Shown here: piece by piece, positions 22,081 through 26,975 of the stretch
Layout of the letters: each line of letters begins with the position of its first letter
How positions within the stretch are numbered: position 1 is the first letter of the stretch
Origin: a virus
Virus record (IMG/VR): IMGVR_UViG_3300038603_000019
Direction: 5' to 3' (one strand)
DNA: 38,805 bases
Translations under genes and position numbers: made by a program
The notes under the pieces: generated by a model
The model's database searches: none
What the model saw: the letters and a program-made list of their open reading frames with translations, nothing else
What the model was told of the DNA's origin: nothing

Positions 22081-23028
22081 TTAAGGCGTAGTTGTTAGTG
22101 TAATGATGAAGCCAGCGGTTGCCTTGTCGCTTGTTGCGTACTTCTCCCAGTTGGTAGTTGTAGCAAGTGAAGCAGCAGACGGGTTAACGTTTGTTTTGGT
22201 CTTCCATTTGTAACCAAGAACCTCAACGTTAGCTGTACCCTCAGCACGGAAACCGATAGCCAAGTTTTCTTGGTCGTCAATCATGTAAGAGCGCATGCCC
22301 GGAGCTTGTGACTCAGTAATCATTACCGCACCAGCTACAAGACCGAAAATCTTAGTCGCTGGACATTGGTCAGTTACAAGTACAGGCTTGCCAAGTGTGC
22401 CAGGTGTACCGCCGTAAACTACAACGCCAGCCTCTTCGTAAAGCTTGTTGTCGATAGCTTCGTCAACGATATCGAAGTAAGACGTTGAATCCATTACCCA
22501 GATTGCGATAGATGACGCTTTATCACCCATTGTGCGCAGACCTTTAGTAAGGACTTTCTTACCTTCAGTTGCAAGCTCACCAGACACATTCATGCCAGCG
22601 TTAGAGCCGATTGCGCCTTGTAGCGCGTTCAGTGCGTAACCAATCCAACCAGACATTGTAGCGTCTGCCATATCTTGACCGATAATTTCAGAGAACTCCT
22701 CAGGCGAACGAGCGCGGCGCTTGAACGCTTCTTCTGTCGTTTCGTATGGACCATATTTCCATGGCACCTTCACTGATACCATTTCATCAGCAGCAATCTT
22801 GGTGCCTGTCACCGCTGCGGTTGAGTTTACATCACGGTCGGCGATAGAGCCACCCACTTTGTAGAACGAGCGAAGTTTCAAATCACCTTCGATTAGCTCA
22901 GAGTTTAGACCAATCGCAGCGCGTGAGTTTTCGTTAAACACAGCTAGGTTATCCATATTGCGCTCTAGGTACGCAGTTTGGGCTGTGTCGTTGTAGATTA
23001 CTAAATCAGAGTTTACTGTAGTAGCCAT
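22081..23028 (-). CDS. major capsid protein
   Basis: 315 aa. Follows the scaffold gene after a 10-nt gap. Strongly biased codon use, and an attenuator follows. Confidence 0.75.
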   Translation of the reverse strand: MATTVNSDLVIYNDTAQTAYLERNMDNLAVFNENSRAAIGLNSELIEGDLKLRSFYKVGGSIADRDVNSTAAVTGTKIAADEMVSVKVPWKYGPYETTEEAFKRRARSPEEFSEIIGQDMADATMSGWIGYALNALQGAIGSNAGMNVSGELATEGKKVLTKGLRTMGDKASSIAIWVMDSTSYFDIVDEAIDNKLYEEAGVVVYGGTPGTLGKPVLVTDQCPATKIFGLVAGAVMITESQAPGMRSYMIDDQENLAIGFRAEGTANVEVLGYKWKTKTNVNPSAASLATTTNWEKYATSDKATAGFIITLTTTP

Positions 23029-23038
23029 TGCTTAATCC

Positions 23039-23689
23039 TTACTTTGGTAGTTTCAAAAATGCTTCCTGACCATGCTCCTGTTGATATGCGCGCTTTTCTG
23101 TCGCGCTCATCTTAGAGCGGTGAGGAGTTACCGAGTGTTGCCCTTGACCACCAGCAGCTTGTGCGCCGGTTGATGTAGGAGCTTTAATTCTTGAGGCGAA
23201 TTGGTCATTGGCTGATAGAGCCTTAAAGTAATCATCAAAGTTGTTGTACTGATTACCGTTAAACTCGAATGTATCAACTACCACGCCATTCTCAAACTTA
23301 GGTTTAATATGCTGTGACAGTGCGTATTCAATTAAGTCAGCGTCTTGGCTAAACTTAGATTTAGCTTGCTGTCTCAATGATTCCGCACGACTTGTAACAA
23401 GACTAGATTGCAGTTTCTCAAGCTCTTGGCGGTCTAATTGACGTAGCTCTTCAAACTTTCCTTCTGCTTCTAGTTTCTCTCGTTTAGCCTGTTCAGCGGC
23501 GCGTTCAATTTCCTCGCGTTCGGTTTTTAAGCCTTGTAGTTCGGTCTTTGTTCGCTCTAAACCCTTTCGTAAACCGTCAGTTTGCGGAGCATTTTCAATC
23601 ACTGCGTCCAGTTTTGATACGTCGAAATCATCAGGTGCTTTCACTTCAAAACCATTGGCTTGAAGTTGTTCAAGAATGTAATGTTCCAT
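23039..23689 (-). CDS. scaffolding protein
   Basis: Charged, helical, Glu/Lys/Gln-rich 216-aa protein directly upstream of the capsid gene. SD AGAGAGG precedes the ATG at 23689. Confidence 0.65.
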   Translation of the reverse strand: MEHYILEQLQANGFEVKAPDDFDVSKLDAVIENAPQTDGLRKGLERTKTELQGLKTEREEIERAAEQAKREKLEAEGKFEELRQLDRQELEKLQSSLVTSRAESLRQQAKSKFSQDADLIEYALSQHIKPKFENGVVVDTFEFNGNQYNNFDDYFKALSANDQFASRIKAPTSTGAQAAGGQGQHSVTPHRSKMSATEKRAYQQEHGQEAFLKLPK

Positions 23690-23742
23690 TTGTTGCCTCT
23701 CTTTTTCCCACATCAAACAGCGCGTTTGTGTGTCTATGTCAC

Positions 23743-23771
23743 ATTTTAAGGCATTTAACATTGACAGGCAA
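23743..23771 (-). promoter_or_regulatory. sigma70-type promoter for the scaffold/capsid operon
   Basis: Minus strand reads TTGCCT (23771-23766), 17 nt, TAAAAT (23748-23743). Confidence 0.5.
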
Positions 23772-23780
23772 CAGGCAAAG

Positions 23781-23801
23781 AAAAAACCCTCACGAGGAGG
23801 G
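23781..23801 (-). terminator. terminator ending the 25183->23809 cassette
   Basis: CCCTC-acgag-GAGGG with TTTTTT on the minus strand. Confidence 0.6.
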
Positions 23802-23808
23802 CTTGCTT

Positions 23809-24057
23809 TTATTGGTCAATCCTAATGAATCCAGCAGGTGTAAATATTGAATCCCACTCATAACCACAATTCGTACACTTTCTATGGTCTAGGTTTGAAT
23901 CCCTATCACTTACGGTTGTGATTATGTTGTTACCTTCACTTTCCCATTTTCCACAGCGATAACATGCGTGATTCATTCCATTTTCTGTTGTGTATTTATC
24001 CTTTGCTTTTTCGTTAAAGAAGTCAGCAATCCGTTTTAGCGTTTTGAATTTCATCAC
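23809..24057 (-). CDS. zinc-ribbon protein (82 aa)
   Basis: CYRCGKW...CTNCGYEW (CxxC-N26-CxxC). The start overlaps the upstream stop. Confidence 0.55.
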   Translation of the reverse strand: MMKFKTLKRIADFFNEKAKDKYTTENGMNHACYRCGKWESEGNNIITTVSDRDSNLDHRKCTNCGYEWDSIFTPAGFIRIDQ

Positions 24058-24482
24058 TCCAACTCCATAACATTCACTTCACCACCAGTATAGCAATCAA
24101 GCGTCTTTGCGTGTTCAACTGCTTCTTTTGCGTTTAGGCCTAGGCGCATTGCTGACAGGGCGAACGGATGACCAGAGCCAAATGAGTCATCATTGTCTAA
24201 CTCCTCCTTCCAAATGAATCCCTCACTGTCAACGCCACAGCGGTAGGTTACACCATCATCATGCACAAAAGCATTGCACTCTGGCACTCTATCCACCTTA
24301 CCGTCTTGGTACGCCTGAATCATTAATTTCTCATCAGAAACCACGCCGCAAATCCAATAATGAACACCTCCAACCTCAATGTGCTTTTCTGAGTTGTCAC
24401 TCTTTATCACTCCATTATCCCCGCTTTTTCTACTATCCCAAGCAATTGTTTTTGATTTGTGGTGGTAAGCAATTGTTGTCAT
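24054..24482 (-). CDS. HslV / proteasome-beta-like Ntn (threonine) peptidase, minimal 142-aa form
   Basis: N-terminus MTTIAY (Thr right after Met, as in HslV MTTIV). Asp and Lys sit at HslV-like spacing (IAWD, SEKH). SFGSGHPFALSAMRLG matches the HslV IGSGGPYAQAAARAL block. C-terminal AKEAVEHAKTLDCYTGG. Confidence 0.55.
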   Translation of the reverse strand: MTTIAYHHKSKTIAWDSRKSGDNGVIKSDNSEKHIEVGGVHYWICGVVSDEKLMIQAYQDGKVDRVPECNAFVHDDGVTYRCGVDSEGFIWKEELDNDDSFGSGHPFALSAMRLGLNAKEAVEHAKTLDCYTGGEVNVMELE

Positions 24483-24667
24483 TGATTATCTCCTGTCGAG
24501 TAGTATTGAGGACAAATGGCCGCCAGCGTTGCCATGAAATCGTTGATATCTTCAATATCACGCCGCTTGTTTTGTCGATGTTTAATCATATCGCGCTGTT
24601 TTGCATCTTTGCGCATACCTTTTGACATGCTACTTGAGCCTGTGCTGCCTAGTTCTGAAATCTTCAT
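24479..24667 (-). CDS. hypothetical basic protein (62 aa)
   Basis: ATGA overlaps on both sides. MKISELGSTGSSSMSKGMRKDAKQRDMIKHRQNKRRD.... Confidence 0.4.
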   Translation of the reverse strand: MKISELGSTGSSSMSKGMRKDAKQRDMIKHRQNKRRDIEDINDFMATLAAICPQYYSTGDNQ

Positions 24668-24936
24668 ACAAACCACCCTTGCAAGTAACCCAAACAGATT
24701 GCAGCAGACCAAGAGATAACAACCGACAAGGTTAGCATTTTCTTGAGCGCTGATTTTTCACGCTTGAGTTTATCAGCCTTATTGTGCCAGTAAATCATAC
24801 TTGAGCGAGTTTGCTTGTTGTATTCAATCTTGTGACGAATGTAATGCATGCGCTCGTTGTTTGTCTTTCCTGCCTGAGATTTAAACCACTCATGATGATT
24901 GCGGTTTATTTCCATTCTTACTTTGCTGCTTTTCAT
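24664..24936 (-). CDS. hypothetical basic protein with C-terminal TM (90 aa)
   Basis: C-terminal LTLSVVISWSAAICLGYLQGWFV. Coupled starts and stops. Confidence 0.45.
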   Translation of the reverse strand: MKSSKVRMEINRNHHEWFKSQAGKTNNERMHYIRHKIEYNKQTRSSMIYWHNKADKLKREKSALKKMLTLSVVISWSAAICLGYLQGWFV

Positions 24937-25022
24937 CCTAACCACCCATTGCTAATTATGATTCCAGTTGCCACGCCTAAGCAGTAGCTGACCATTACTG
25001 TGTTCTTGAAGAGTTCAAACAT
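24933..25022 (-). CDS. possible 29-aa membrane peptide
   Basis: MFELFKNTVMVSYCLGVATGIIISNGWLG. Start and stop overlap both neighbours. Confidence 0.3.
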   Translation of the reverse strand: MFELFKNTVMVSYCLGVATGIIISNGWLG

Positions 25023-25183
25023 TATTTAAACACCTCCGTTAATAAACTACCAATGAATCCACTCAGCAGCCAGAAAGGAGCGCCAATTGCCCACCATAAT
25101 CCTGAAAGCATTTCTGCTTCAGCGCCAACTTGAACGAATGACGCTAATAAACCAAAAATAACAGCACTAATAACATAAAACAT
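25022..25183 (-). CDS. small two-TM membrane protein (53 aa; holin-like topology)
   Basis: MFYVISAVIFGLLASFVQVG...LWWAIGAPFWLLSGFIGSLL. SD GGAGGAG precedes the ATG at 25183. Confidence 0.5.
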   Translation of the reverse strand: MFYVISAVIFGLLASFVQVGAEAEMLSGLWWAIGAPFWLLSGFIGSLLTEVFK

Positions 25184-25250
25184 ATCCACTCCTCCGTTTC
25201 GTTGTTGAATCAAACTATACCCTAGTTGATGTGGTGATGTTGTGAGATTG

Positions 25251-25283
25251 GTCACAGTAAATAGAATTAAGTTGTGCGATTAT
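25251..25283 (+). promoter_or_regulatory. GTCACR-N21-(-10) promoter-like element, copy D
   Basis: GTCACA 25251-25256, 21 nt, GATTAT 25278-25283 (alternative TATGGT 25281-25286). ATG lies 25 nt downstream. Confidence 0.4.
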
Positions 25284-25308: not shown

Positions 25309-25503
25309 ATGACAGATTGGTACGAGTACGAAAGCGGATGCAGTGTATTCATCCATAGCGGGAAATACATGTCTTATATTGGCAACTTCGTAAAACTTTC
25401 GCAATGCAGGAAGTTTGCATTTGTTGATGTTGACTTATCTCCAGAGCCAATAGTGAGGAGAATTAGATACAAGTTGTGCAACATTTCAAAATACGAACAC
25501 TAA
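25309..25503 (+). CDS. hypothetical protein (64 aa)
   Basis: SD AGAGAGG; first ORF of a three-gene plus-strand cassette. Confidence 0.5.
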   Translation: MTDWYEYESGCSVFIHSGKYMSYIGNFVKLSQCRKFAFVDVDLSPEPIVRRIRYKLCNISKYEH

Positions 25504-25515
25504 AGGATCGACAAA

Positions 25516-25701
25516 ATGAAGAATAAAAAGGTTAAGCAGATGATGGCTTGTGGTTACGACAATGCAGCCGATAGAGTTGGTTACTGGTGCGAGCATCAGA
25601 AAAACCTTATTGATTGCGCAAGGTTTATGCGAGGTAAGTTTTTGTGGTGGCCTAAGTGCAGCACAATCTCACTAACAGCAAGCGAATTGAAGGGGGAGTG
25701 A
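25516..25701 (+). CDS. hypothetical Cys/Trp-rich protein (61 aa)
   Basis: ORF track entry. The stop overlaps the next ATG. Confidence 0.45.
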   Translation: MKNKKVKQMMACGYDNAADRVGYWCEHQKNLIDCARFMRGKFLWWPKCSTISLTASELKGE

Positions 25702-25829
25702 TGACAATTAAAGGCGTGGGCAACGTTTACGGTAAGTGGGCTTACATCTGCCCAGGCTGTAACAAATACATGGTTAACAAGCTTTACAAGTCGCTACTGG
25801 CTGAAATCAATACCCATAAATGCAAGTAA
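25701..25829 (+). CDS. possible 42-aa zinc-ribbon-like protein
   Basis: SD GGGGGAG. MTIKGVGNVYGKWAYICPGCNKYMVNKLYKSLLAEINTHKCK (CxxC...HxC). Confidence 0.4.
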   Translation: MTIKGVGNVYGKWAYICPGCNKYMVNKLYKSLLAEINTHKCK

Positions 25830-25834
25830 AACCA

Positions 25835-25857
25835 AAACCCTCGCAATGAGGGTTTTT
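25835..25857. terminator. hairpin terminator
   Basis: AAACCCTC-gcaat-GAGGGTTTTT. Confidence 0.65.
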
Positions 25858-25858
25858 C

Positions 25859-26929
25859 TTAATCTTTCTTCAGAATCCTAGCGGCCTTTTTGCTCTTGGT
25901 CACAAGCTGATCGAGAGTAATAGGGTTTCCCATGTGGTCATAAGCAAGTTTCACAAACTCTTCTGATGACATGTTGTCTAGTAACCTAGCCCTATCCTCA
26001 CCTAGCGATTCTATGGCAAGGTTCTTATTTTCCTTAGCTAAATCTAGCCAACTCTTGTTGGAATCAACTCTTTTCGCTCGACCGTCGACAACGCTAGGCC
26101 TTGTGCGTGGTTCTTCCAGCTCCTCAAATTCAGGCGCAAGCAGATAACGCATTGTGCTACGGCAGTTGTGATGGAAAGGATTTCTCGGGAAATTAAACCC
26201 GTCTTTCGCGTAATAGTATTTCTTGCCACCGCCATCGAGACTACCCAAACGCTGACAAATCGGACTGGTGCGTGAATCCAAGGTAACTACTACGGCCTCA
26301 CCCACAACCACATCCTGATTCGCCATGCCAACCGATGTTTTAGCGGTTGATGATATGTGGCTTGTTACGTCTTTCGTTAACGTAAAAGCTCCGCGTGACA
26401 TCTGATTGCTAACCGATGAATTTTGTCGCCCCATAATTTGCTGTGACATCTCGTAAGTAGTCAAACCGTCACGCCAGCCACCTGTAATAATCCGCTTGAT
26501 TCTATCGACTGAGTTAGCGTTGTAATTCTTAATGCGCTCATCGACCGTGTATGCTTGACCGTTTAACACCATTTCAGTGTTGAATGCAGTTTTAGTGATT
26601 GACTCTAGTGTTGGTCGTGCGATTTTCTGGCCTACCAAGTTAGACAATGCAGCCTGGTGAAACTTAGCCTCCTCCTTGGCAAGCGCCACAAGCTCGCTTT
26701 CTAGCTCTCCACTCCAGCCGCCTAGCTCAACACCAATTAGTTCGTTAACCAGCGCCAGAAGCTCATCACGGCGCTTCTTTGTGGTGATTGCATCGGTTGA
26801 TAGCAACTCTTCACGCAATGCTTTAATAATCGCGTCAATGTACGGTTGTGCATTACGACCAAGTGACCGACTAAACCGGATAAGTGCTATTTCATGCGAT
26901 AGCGTTGTTGCTAGTGCTGTTTCTGCCAT
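25859..26929 (-). CDS. head morphogenesis protein (SPP1 gp7 / Mu F-like)
   Basis: SPICQRLGSLDGG...FPRNPFHHNCRSTM matches the Mu-F motif (C..C...P.H.NCR). Lies next to the portal gene. The ATG at 26929 or the GTG at 26947 could be the start. Confidence 0.8.
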   Translation of the reverse strand: MAETALATTLSHEIALIRFSRSLGRNAQPYIDAIIKALREELLSTDAITTKKRRDELLALVNELIGVELGGWSGELESELVALAKEEAKFHQAALSNLVGQKIARPTLESITKTAFNTEMVLNGQAYTVDERIKNYNANSVDRIKRIITGGWRDGLTTYEMSQQIMGRQNSSVSNQMSRGAFTLTKDVTSHISSTAKTSVGMANQDVVVGEAVVVTLDSRTSPICQRLGSLDGGGKKYYYAKDGFNFPRNPFHHNCRSTMRYLLAPEFEELEEPRTRPSVVDGRAKRVDSNKSWLDLAKENKNLAIESLGEDRARLLDNMSSEEFVKLAYDHMGNPITLDQLVTKSKKAARILKKD

Positions 26930-26942
26930 TTTTGAGACCTTT

Positions 26943-26975
26943 GTCACAGAAGTATTCGAATGATGGCGTTATTAT
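26943..26975 (+). promoter_or_regulatory. GTCACR-N21-(-10) promoter-like element, copy E
   Basis: GTCACA 26943-26948, 21 nt, TATTAT 26970-26975. ATG lies 30 nt downstream. Confidence 0.45.

Follow-up and report, generated by a model that had tools for sequence, protein, structure and literature searches.

The stretch of viral DNA analysed here, IMG/VR record IMGVR_UViG_3300038603_000019 (38,805 nucleotides, referred to below as the window), is that of a phiHSIC-like Vibrio siphophage in which a cassette of six minus-strand open reading frames (ORFs), running from 25183 to 23809, lies between a MuF-like head gene and the scaffold gene. Our results indicate that the fifth of these ORFs encodes a 142-residue predicted hydrolase of the proteasome/HslV type, with an N-terminal Thr and an intact catalytic set, and that this protein is a putative member of the phage family PPH. 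The six genes are a mosaic and not a module. The peptidase is probably an optional passenger that serves phage fitness or the interaction with the host through proteasome-type chemistry, in a variable slot and outside capsid assembly. The locus holds no new kind of gene; what is new is the location of PPH in the MuF-scaffold slot of phiHSIC-like Vibrio phages, together with the promoter that precedes it.

A predicted short HslV-like hydrolase, probably of the PPH family

The 142-residue protein (24054..24482, minus strand) starts with MTTIAY and includes SFGSGHPFALSAMRLG; its key residues are Thr2, Asp16, Lys33, Gly46, Gly102-Ser103-Gly104 and Asp129. Sequence, profile and predicted structure point to the same assignment, that of a PPH-family proteasome homolog, or mini-HslV. 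The protein matches PHROG 1040, 'peptidase HslV family', over its full length (E 8e-32), and PHROG files that family under the category 'other' and not under 'head and packaging'. Neither Pfam-A (E up to 1) nor NCBIfam (E up to 0.1) contained a matching family, and a single-sequence phmmer search against the PDB returned no match. A profile of 26 relatives, searched against the PDB, found the proteasome subunits beta5/beta5i (E 2.7e-9) and HslV (E 8.8e-7). Comparison by hhalign with E. coli HslV gave a probability of 92.5% and paired the Met-Thr-Thr start with that of HslV, Asp16 with Asp17, Lys33 with Lys33, Gly46 with Gly45 and GSG with GSG, while about 20 HslV residues after helix H1 were left unpaired.

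The AlphaFold2 model of the protein (pLDDT 95.6, pTM 0.89) contains, according to DSSP, three helices only, at residues 51-60, 105-113 and 118-128. Its best Foldseek matches in the PDB were the beta-proteobacterial proteasome homolog BPH (5ovs, E 8e-8), HslV (4ho7, 1g3i and 6kui) and the 20S beta subunit, with E about 1e-7, TMq of 0.62-0.73 and about 20-24% identity to HslV, and the best viral structure matches include phage proteins labelled 'proteasome subunit beta' and 'Ntn hydrolase'. Loss of helix H2 accounts for a length about 34 residues below that of HslV. The first-pass annotation, made from the letters of the window, had seen here an HslV/proteasome-like Thr peptidase some 30 residues short. 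PHROG 1040, the family profile, hhalign and Foldseek all agree with this reading, and the structure and profile searches, with BPH, HslV and 20S beta as matches, point to an Ntn-hydrolase fold.

An HMMER scan of 1.84 billion cluster representatives recovered 209 clusters at E <=1e-30 and 2,456 at E <=1e-10, and nearly all of the best 150 relatives are 135-155 residues long and match from residue 1. Conservation was calculated on 183 sequences that represent clusters at <=50% identity and have a median length of 144 residues. The MTT start is present in 174 of the 183, and the catalytic positions are close to invariant: Thr2 in 99%, Asp16 in 97%, Lys33 in 100%, Gly46 in 99%, the three residues of GSG in 99, 96 and 100%, Asp129 in 95%, and Gly133-Gly134 in 100 and 99%. 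The N-terminal Thr nucleophile and the GSG block, which had been picked out at first pass, both align with HslV and are 96-100% conserved in this set. From the conservation of the catalytic residues we infer that PPH would hydrolyse peptide bonds in a Thr-dependent manner.

PPH was described in 2021 (Fuchs et al., PMC8665760) as a family of about 140 residues belonging to group I (HslV/BPH-like), which occurs in Caudovirales and in the prophage regions of the bacteria that they infect; among proteasome homologs, only PPH and RPC lack H2 (PMC8665760). The window protein shows the described features: a length of about 140 residues, an HslV/BPH-like fold and no propeptide, with H2 absent and H1, H3 and H4 kept, as judged by DSSP on the model and by hhalign. 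Thr2, Asp16, Lys33 and Gly46 are the equivalents of the family's Thr1, Asp17, Lys33 and oxyanion Gly47. Coding by tailed phages or prophages of Proteobacteria also agrees, given 125 phage records and a window that is itself a Vibrio siphophage. Since every descriptive feature matches, we regard the protein as a likely PPH member, the assignment being made through these features, and the published set OC.1434257 (reference WP_042125023.1) being compared by description only.

The 125 phage records were obtained by tblastn and come from phages of Pseudomonas, Salmonella, Vibrio, Aeromonas, Klebsiella and others, in which the GenBank labels of the protein are 'peptidase HslV family', 'HslV family peptidase', 'proteasome subunit beta' and 'nucleophile aminohydrolase'. 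Variants of 192-194 residues (P0029-P0031) carry some 50 extra C-terminal residues that are poorly conserved. The first-pass annotation had considered that no phage module of this composition was described; as regards the peptidase this does not hold, given that it is already in PHROGs, annotated in many phages and published as PPH.

Among known systems, HslV (ClpQ, MEROPS T1B) is like PPH in its Met-Thr-Thr start, Thr1 nucleophile, lack of a propeptide, aligned Asp, Lys33, Gly and GSG, and beta-sandwich. The two differ in length (about 176 residues in HslV, 142 in PPH), in the absence from PPH of H2 and the adjoining region, and in that PPH matches no HslV/Proteasome model of Pfam or NCBIfam. 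No HslU or Clp-type ATPase was seen among the larger window ORFs scanned, the neighbours being small proteins, MuF and scaffold. BPH, the best Foldseek match of PPH, shares with it the lack of a known unfoldase partner, whereas BPH is about 185 residues long, has H1-H4 and a long acidic pore loop (PMC8665760), and is chromosomal and not phage-borne. The archaeal connectase, too, combines a proteasome fold with a reduced first helix pair. In connectase, H1 and H2 are both gone and a two-helix S3/S4 insertion covers the active site, whereas PPH keeps H1 and has no insertion. Connectase is a protein ligase, which indicates that enzymes of this superfamily can have functions other than degradation (PMC8665760).

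A variable slot between the MuF-like and scaffold genes

The six leftward ORFs encode proteins of 53, 29, 90, 62, 142 and 82 residues, and their junctions read, in order, TAATG, ATGA, ATGA, ATGA and GTGA. Each start overlaps the previous stop, which fits translational coupling. The ORFs are considered real genes because protein-level relatives were found for all six, that is, for tm53, p29, p90, p62, the 142-residue protein and the zinc ribbon. Directly after the last cassette stop, an intrinsic-terminator-like hairpin is followed by a U-tract (23784..23804, minus strand; -11.7 kcal/mol, z -2.65). DNA homology with P23 and phiHSIC runs through this terminator, to 23810 and 23822 respectively, and the terminator is conserved backbone upstream of the scaffold gene. 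On the other side, a bidirectional terminator (25834..25856; -12.4 and -11.9 kcal/mol on the minus and plus strands, respectively) closes the MuF-like gene, the stop of which is at 25859, and divides it from the cassette and from the rightward ORF at 25656-25829. Six overlapping leftward ORFs with a promoter and a terminator of their own had been described at first pass; all six are present with every junction overlapping, and the unit is framed by a conserved promoter at 25256-25214 and the terminator at 23804-23784. The G+C content of the cargo genes (0.39-0.45, against 0.44-0.49 in the structural genes) is only slightly lower, and thus says nothing decisive on recent acquisition.

Comparison with related phages indicates that the cassette is composed of a constant part and an exchangeable one. 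The constant part consists of p90 and p62, which are present in P23, ValSw3-3, VaS_L1, pYD38-B, phiHSIC and K44. The promoter leads straight into p29 in P23 and straight into p90 in pYD38-B, phiHSIC and the metagenome contig L015. After p62, the cargo is a 52-residue ORF in P23, a 259-residue 'replication initiation protein' in pYD38-B, ORF16 in phiHSIC, and in K44 and contig L028 as many as ten genes, one of them for an HNH endonuclease. VaS_L1 carries PPH at the same position as the window, directly after p62. The window-specific DNA relative to P23 is 23811-24500, essentially the zinc ribbon and PPH, and the sole extra relative to VaS_L1 is the zinc-ribbon segment. A tblastn search with the 142-residue protein did not find PPH in the complete genomes of P23, pYD38-B and phiHSIC, the scaffold proteins of which are 77-91% identical to that of the window and the coat genes of which show 86-89% DNA identity. 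The slot cargo was different in every relative examined. In K44 (L006 1858-7300) and L028 (3621-6790) the slot is swollen to at least 10 small genes, one of which encodes a Phage_gp49_66 protein, and this growth in K44-type and metagenomic relatives suggests that the slot serves the lineage generally as a place where mobile cargo is inserted.

The slot is thus made up of constant p90 and p62, a swappable 3' cargo position, a promoter and a terminator, with PPH and the zinc ribbon as its cargo here. The module of six genes proposed at first pass is not sustained. p62 was found by tblastn in 118 Vibrio/Listonella phage records, against 17 Vibrio records for PPH, and more than 100 further PPH records are non-Vibrio and have no p62 match; tm53, p29 and the zinc ribbon all vary among relatives. 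When co-occurrence of the six genes was searched for, only p90 and p62 proved to be lineage-constant.

The concept of phage 'morons', or hypervariable accessory slots in late operons, comes from lambdoid phage genomics. The slot is moron-like in that it has its own terminator and predicted promoter within a structural operon, its content varies in presence among close relatives, and its cargo is swapped at precise boundaries. It is unlike morons in that the promoter, the terminator, p90 and p62 are conserved backbone and several genes follow one promoter, only the cargo position being moron-like.

In other phages, PPH occurs in many different places. It lies between the portal and MuF genes in BUCT006 and 1.197.A, 5' of the portal gene and after a methyltransferase gene in L026, and between the adaptor and head-closure genes in 1.147.O. 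It follows NinG (NinG-lyase) in AH02 and the lysis genes in HHBS14_1, it is part of a divergent island among the tail genes in Klebsiella Jedunavirus, and it is found in replication or early-middle regions in Shewanella 3/49 and PAK_P3. In the transcriptome paper on PAK_P3, the PPH gene, gp143, is unnamed, and the middle transcripts cover nucleic-acid-metabolism regions, which include gp143 by position. In a P22-like Vibrio fluvialis prophage (GCA_028988625.1; L014 8001-8579), PPH is placed between a lysis cassette of holin, lysozyme and Rz-like genes and the small terminase gene, and is one of the extended variants of 192-194 residues. This free movement, together with dispensability among phages with near-identical capsids, argues that PPH is accessory.

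As to the small proteins, tm53 (25022..25183, minus strand) is by hydropathy and isoelectric point (pI) an acidic small membrane protein of 53 residues with one or two transmembrane (TM) segments. Residues 1-23 form a clear TM segment, a second hydrophobic stretch lies under the 1.6 cut-off, and the overall GRAVY is 1.32; the only homolog among the fetched relatives is that of ValSw3-3 (68% identity). p29 (24933..25022, minus strand) is a semi-conserved hydrophobic peptide of 29 residues, 64-83% identical in P23, ValSw3-3, VaS_L1 and K44, and only borderline by hydropathy as a hydrophobic or TM peptide (maximum 1.43). p90 (24664..24936, minus strand) is a basic protein of 90 residues (pI 10.2) with a predicted C-terminal TM anchor, the TM window of which begins at residue 67, and it matches PHROG 34529, of unknown function (E 6e-12). 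p62 (24479..24667, minus strand), also basic (pI 9.3) and by hydropathy soluble, has 62 residues and is 72-84% identical in close relatives. Three small membrane proteins had been proposed in the first-pass annotation: tm53, with one clear TM segment, and p90, with its C-terminal TM segment, agree with this, whereas the second segment of tm53 is below the cut-off and p29 is borderline. The basic character of the 90- and 62-residue proteins was confirmed by their pI.

The last gene of the cassette (23809..24057, minus strand) encodes a zinc-ribbon protein of 82 residues from a GTG, or 81 residues from an ATG 3 nucleotides on. The CxxC..CxxC motif ascribed to it earlier is read in the ORF as CYRC...CTNC. 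It resembles positions 3-65 of the 205 of PHROG 8828 (E 1.2e-8), which is annotated as HNH endonuclease, and has no nuclease domain. The protein is rare, with 2 phage records and 2 protein clusters matched. It stands next to PPH again in contig L022, and a relative in L023-L025 sits after DnaB without PPH. We considered whether it could be a remnant of the HNH endonuclease of the K44 slot and rejected this, as there is no similarity between them. An assignment of the small TM proteins to a lysis cassette was also discarded, given that relatives carry lysozyme and holin elsewhere and that the TM genes are variable. Neither the small cassette proteins nor the 142-residue protein had a match in Pfam-A, NCBIfam or PADLOC.

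The predicted cassette promoter and a recurrent palindromic box

The predicted cassette promoter was not detected by a generic sigma-70 scan and was located, at 25256-25214, through cross-phage conservation. When the region 5' of the first cassette gene was aligned for seven phages or contigs (the window and six relatives), an invariant block was found that reads TGTGAC..TCACA.C...GGGTATAGTTTG, followed by GGAG and ATG. The block contains a perfect palindromic TGTGA-N6-TCACA box (25241..25256), which is unchanged in P23, VaS_L1, ValSw3-3, pYD38-B, phiHSIC and contig L015. Inside the invariant GGGTATAGTTTG lies a -10 hexamer, TATAGT (25214..25219, minus strand), 21 nucleotides downstream of the box, and transcription of the cassette is predicted to start near 25207. 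The box corresponds to the CRP consensus of E. coli. Its centre lies at about -41.5 relative to the leftward promoter and, by symmetry, at the same distance from a rightward one. A centre at -41.5 is the geometry of class II CRP-dependent promoters.

On the right of the palindrome, at a distance of 21 nucleotides, GATTAT (25278-25283) faces a rightward ORF that begins at 25309. This ORF, of 64 residues (25309-25503, plus strand), is divergent from the cassette and has no relative among the fetched loci. It is followed by an ORF of 57 residues with a CPGC motif (25656-25829, plus strand), which ends at the bidirectional terminator and has 91% identity over 43 residues to a protein of VaS_L1. 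The rightward ORFs at 25309-25829 are apparently driven from the box of the cassette; at this position, P23 and ValSw3-3 have other rightward ORFs.

The conserved promoter DNA also bears on the start of the first cassette gene. A 77-residue version of that ORF, starting at GTG 25255, overruns the promoter, and its 25 N-terminal 'residues' look conserved in the relatives. Conservation of 25184-25255 persists whichever gene comes next, be it tm53, p29, p90 or an unrelated 86-residue ORF. It is thus conservation of promoter DNA, and the true first start is ATG 25183, which gives a protein of 53 residues with a GGAGG 7 nucleotides upstream; the GTG start was ruled out because it leads through the conserved promoter.

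The box is not restricted to the cassette. Allowing at most one mismatch, the motif occurs at 15 sites in the window, 7 of them perfect, against 1.85 +/- 1.43 expected, an excess of about 8-fold. The 16-nucleotide sites are at 1950, 3882, 4702, 6773, 11177, 16002, 18050, 19437, 21110, 25241, 26933, 30161, 34417, 35085 and 37858. Related genomes show an excess too, with 13-19 sites each in P23, VaS_L1, pYD38-B and phiHSIC where 1.4-1.8 are expected. A -10-like hexamer (TATAGT, TATTAT, TATCAT or GATTAT) is found exactly 21 nucleotides from most of the box sites, and most such sites in the window sit 5' of small plus-strand ORFs among the minus-strand structural genes (16077, 18125, 21185, 25309 and 27006). 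The recurrence of the box before small ORFs suggests that the cassette shares a control element, which may be bound by host CRP or by a phage protein, with the other small units of the genome.

Role of the peptidase

As we propose it, PPH would be a cytoplasmic peptidase that acts on host or phage proteins during infection. The host methionine aminopeptidase would remove Met1 and free the Thr to serve as nucleophile and general base partner, as in HslV, and catalysis would use the proteasome triad Thr1/Asp/Lys, a Gly oxyanion hole and the GSG loop. In proteasome-type proteins, H3 and H4 provide ring-ring contacts and the pore loop follows H1/H2, where mutations deregulate HslV (PMC8665760). 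Given that PPH lacks H2 and the pore-loop region, which in HslV faces HslU, and that no unfoldase gene lies nearby, there is probably no gating of the HslU type. PPH rings, if formed, would likely be un-gated and independent of a HslU-type partner, although they might make use of the HslU of the host. Host defence, stress or proteostasis factors would be the most plausible targets, and host proteins are favoured because PPH is dispensable and horizontally mobile. Of the two options that the first-pass annotation had left side by side, maturation protease and part of an accessory system, the second is the better one, PPH being absent from close relatives and mobile elsewhere.

Several points weigh against an accessory peptidase of this kind. 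PPH lies inside or beside virion-gene modules in many lineages, so that a late, assembly-linked role is possible in some phages. In several Vibrio phages it directly follows a p62-type gene, which leaves room for a local functional link. The equivalence of the catalytic residues rests on sequence and profile alignment, and isolated proteasome subunits are inactive until assembled (PMC8665760). Literature searches gave no tested activity, oligomeric state or substrate for PPH, and returned only the bioinformatic description of 2021.

The position of the cassette requires that a role in head maturation be considered. The late module comprises genes for the large terminase, portal, MuF-like protein, scaffold, Gp13-like coat, Ad1 adaptor, Hc1 and Neck1. 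The MuF-like head morphogenesis gene (25859..26947, minus strand) matches PHROG 241 (E 3e-80) and, weakly, Pfam Phage_Mu_F (E 0.009); the scaffold gene (23039..23761, minus strand) matches PHROG 206 (E 4.5e-26); and the major capsid gene (22081-23028, minus strand) matches Pfam Gp13-like (E 5.9e-98). The cassette with PPH is flanked by the MuF-like and scaffold genes and shares their strand, and in several phages PPH lies within head or neck modules. No protease family was matched in Pfam and PHROG scans of the head module, so the earlier remark that a canonical prohead protease is missing stands. An unconventional prohead protease that processes scaffold or coat would fit these facts. It is nevertheless hardly credible, since P23, pYD38-B and phiHSIC have no PPH anywhere despite their closely similar scaffold and the same coat gene, and the family occurs elsewhere in replication, lysis-proximal and tail contexts. 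The unit is on a separate promoter, with a terminator standing between it and the scaffold gene, and the proteasome-type fold, with all strong structural matches in the proteasome family, is unlike the known prohead protease folds. What prohead maturation proteases share with PPH is only the position beside scaffold and coat; fold, conservation and contexts differ. SPP1, which has the same portal-MuF-scaffold-coat layout, assembles without proteolysis, its scaffold being released uncut, and SPP1-like heads of portal, MuF, scaffold and Gp13 require no protease. Because the layout is that of SPP1, the missing prohead protease needs no explanation, and the proposal of an unusual maturation protease is abandoned.

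Two other explanations retain PPH as a functional part of something larger or as something other than a peptidase. It could be that all six gene products belong to a single membrane-associated complex, with the TM proteins and p62 serving to anchor or regulate the peptidase or to bring it substrates and the zinc ribbon acting as an adaptor. The six genes do share one promoter-terminator unit and are translationally coupled throughout, PPH comes immediately after p62 in VaS_L1 and is near p62-like genes in K44, BUCT006 and 1.197.A, a TM protein gene is immediately 5' of PPH in BUCT006, and PPH and the zinc ribbon are again adjacent in L022. Such a complex is nonetheless unlikely in view of the unequal distribution of p62 and PPH, the loss or replacement of tm53 and p29 in close relatives, and the scarcity of the zinc ribbon, a relative of which is found after DnaB with no PPH. 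Even in L022, PPH and the zinc ribbon diverge unequally from those of the window (61% vs 89%), as independent shuffling predicts. Somewhat less improbable is a non-degradative protein, either a decoy that sequesters host HslU or poisons HslV rings, or a connectase-like monomeric ligase or transpeptidase. Most of the listed hosts of PPH phages are Gammaproteobacteria, which encode HslUV, and what PPH has lost, H2 and the pore-loop region, forms the HslU-facing side of HslV. Ligase activity is known from connectase, in which the H1/H2 pair is missing, and several homologs may not form rings (PMC8665760). A passive decoy is hard to reconcile with a catalytic set that is almost fully conserved across hundreds of diverged clusters, which speaks for catalysis. 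Against a ligase, PPH has no S3/S4 insertion of the type that confers specificity on connectase, and its model is a continuous compact core. An optional peptidase carried as slot cargo remains the reading that we prefer.

Some observations concern the flanking head genes themselves. The scaffold ORF from 23761 would encode 240 residues, and its relatives are annotated with 216-231 residues (L001-L003). Within this ORF, the ATG at 23689 is preceded by a good ribosome-binding site, AGAGAGG, and the start at 23761 falls within a promoter-like sequence, TTGCCT-17-TAAAAT (23771-23743); translation probably begins downstream of 23761. The MuF-like gene is annotated as 'putative NAD-asparagine ribosyltransferase' in several relatives. 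In 1.197.A, the MuF-like gene directly 3' of PPH (NVP1197A_08; L007 3929-6001) encodes 690 residues, and the record notes an intein C-terminal splicing region. The MuF protein of the window matches NVP1197A_08 in two separated pieces, which suggests a MuF gene interrupted by an intein.

Taken together, the analysis removes the idea of a new capsid maturation pathway at this locus. A CRP-consensus box at -41.5 before most small accessory units, in five related genomes, suggests host-state-dependent control of accessory genes, and this promoter class may prove more interesting than the cassette itself. It is possible, although we give it a small chance only, that PPH is an active mini-proteasome without the HslU-gated apical helix, which works on its own against host proteins such as defence or stress factors, be it in open rings or with a novel quaternary structure, and that the CRP-consensus box defines a promoter class in phiHSIC-like phages, a group known for pseudolysogeny. 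If this were true, the CRP-box promoter would tie PPH and the other accessory units to the cyclic AMP (cAMP) and nutritional state of the host. Near-isogenic Vibrio phages with and without PPH at one bounded cargo site provide a clean natural experiment. Since that site lies behind a conserved promoter, the contribution of PPH to host range, burst size or counter-defence may be tested by means of swaps.

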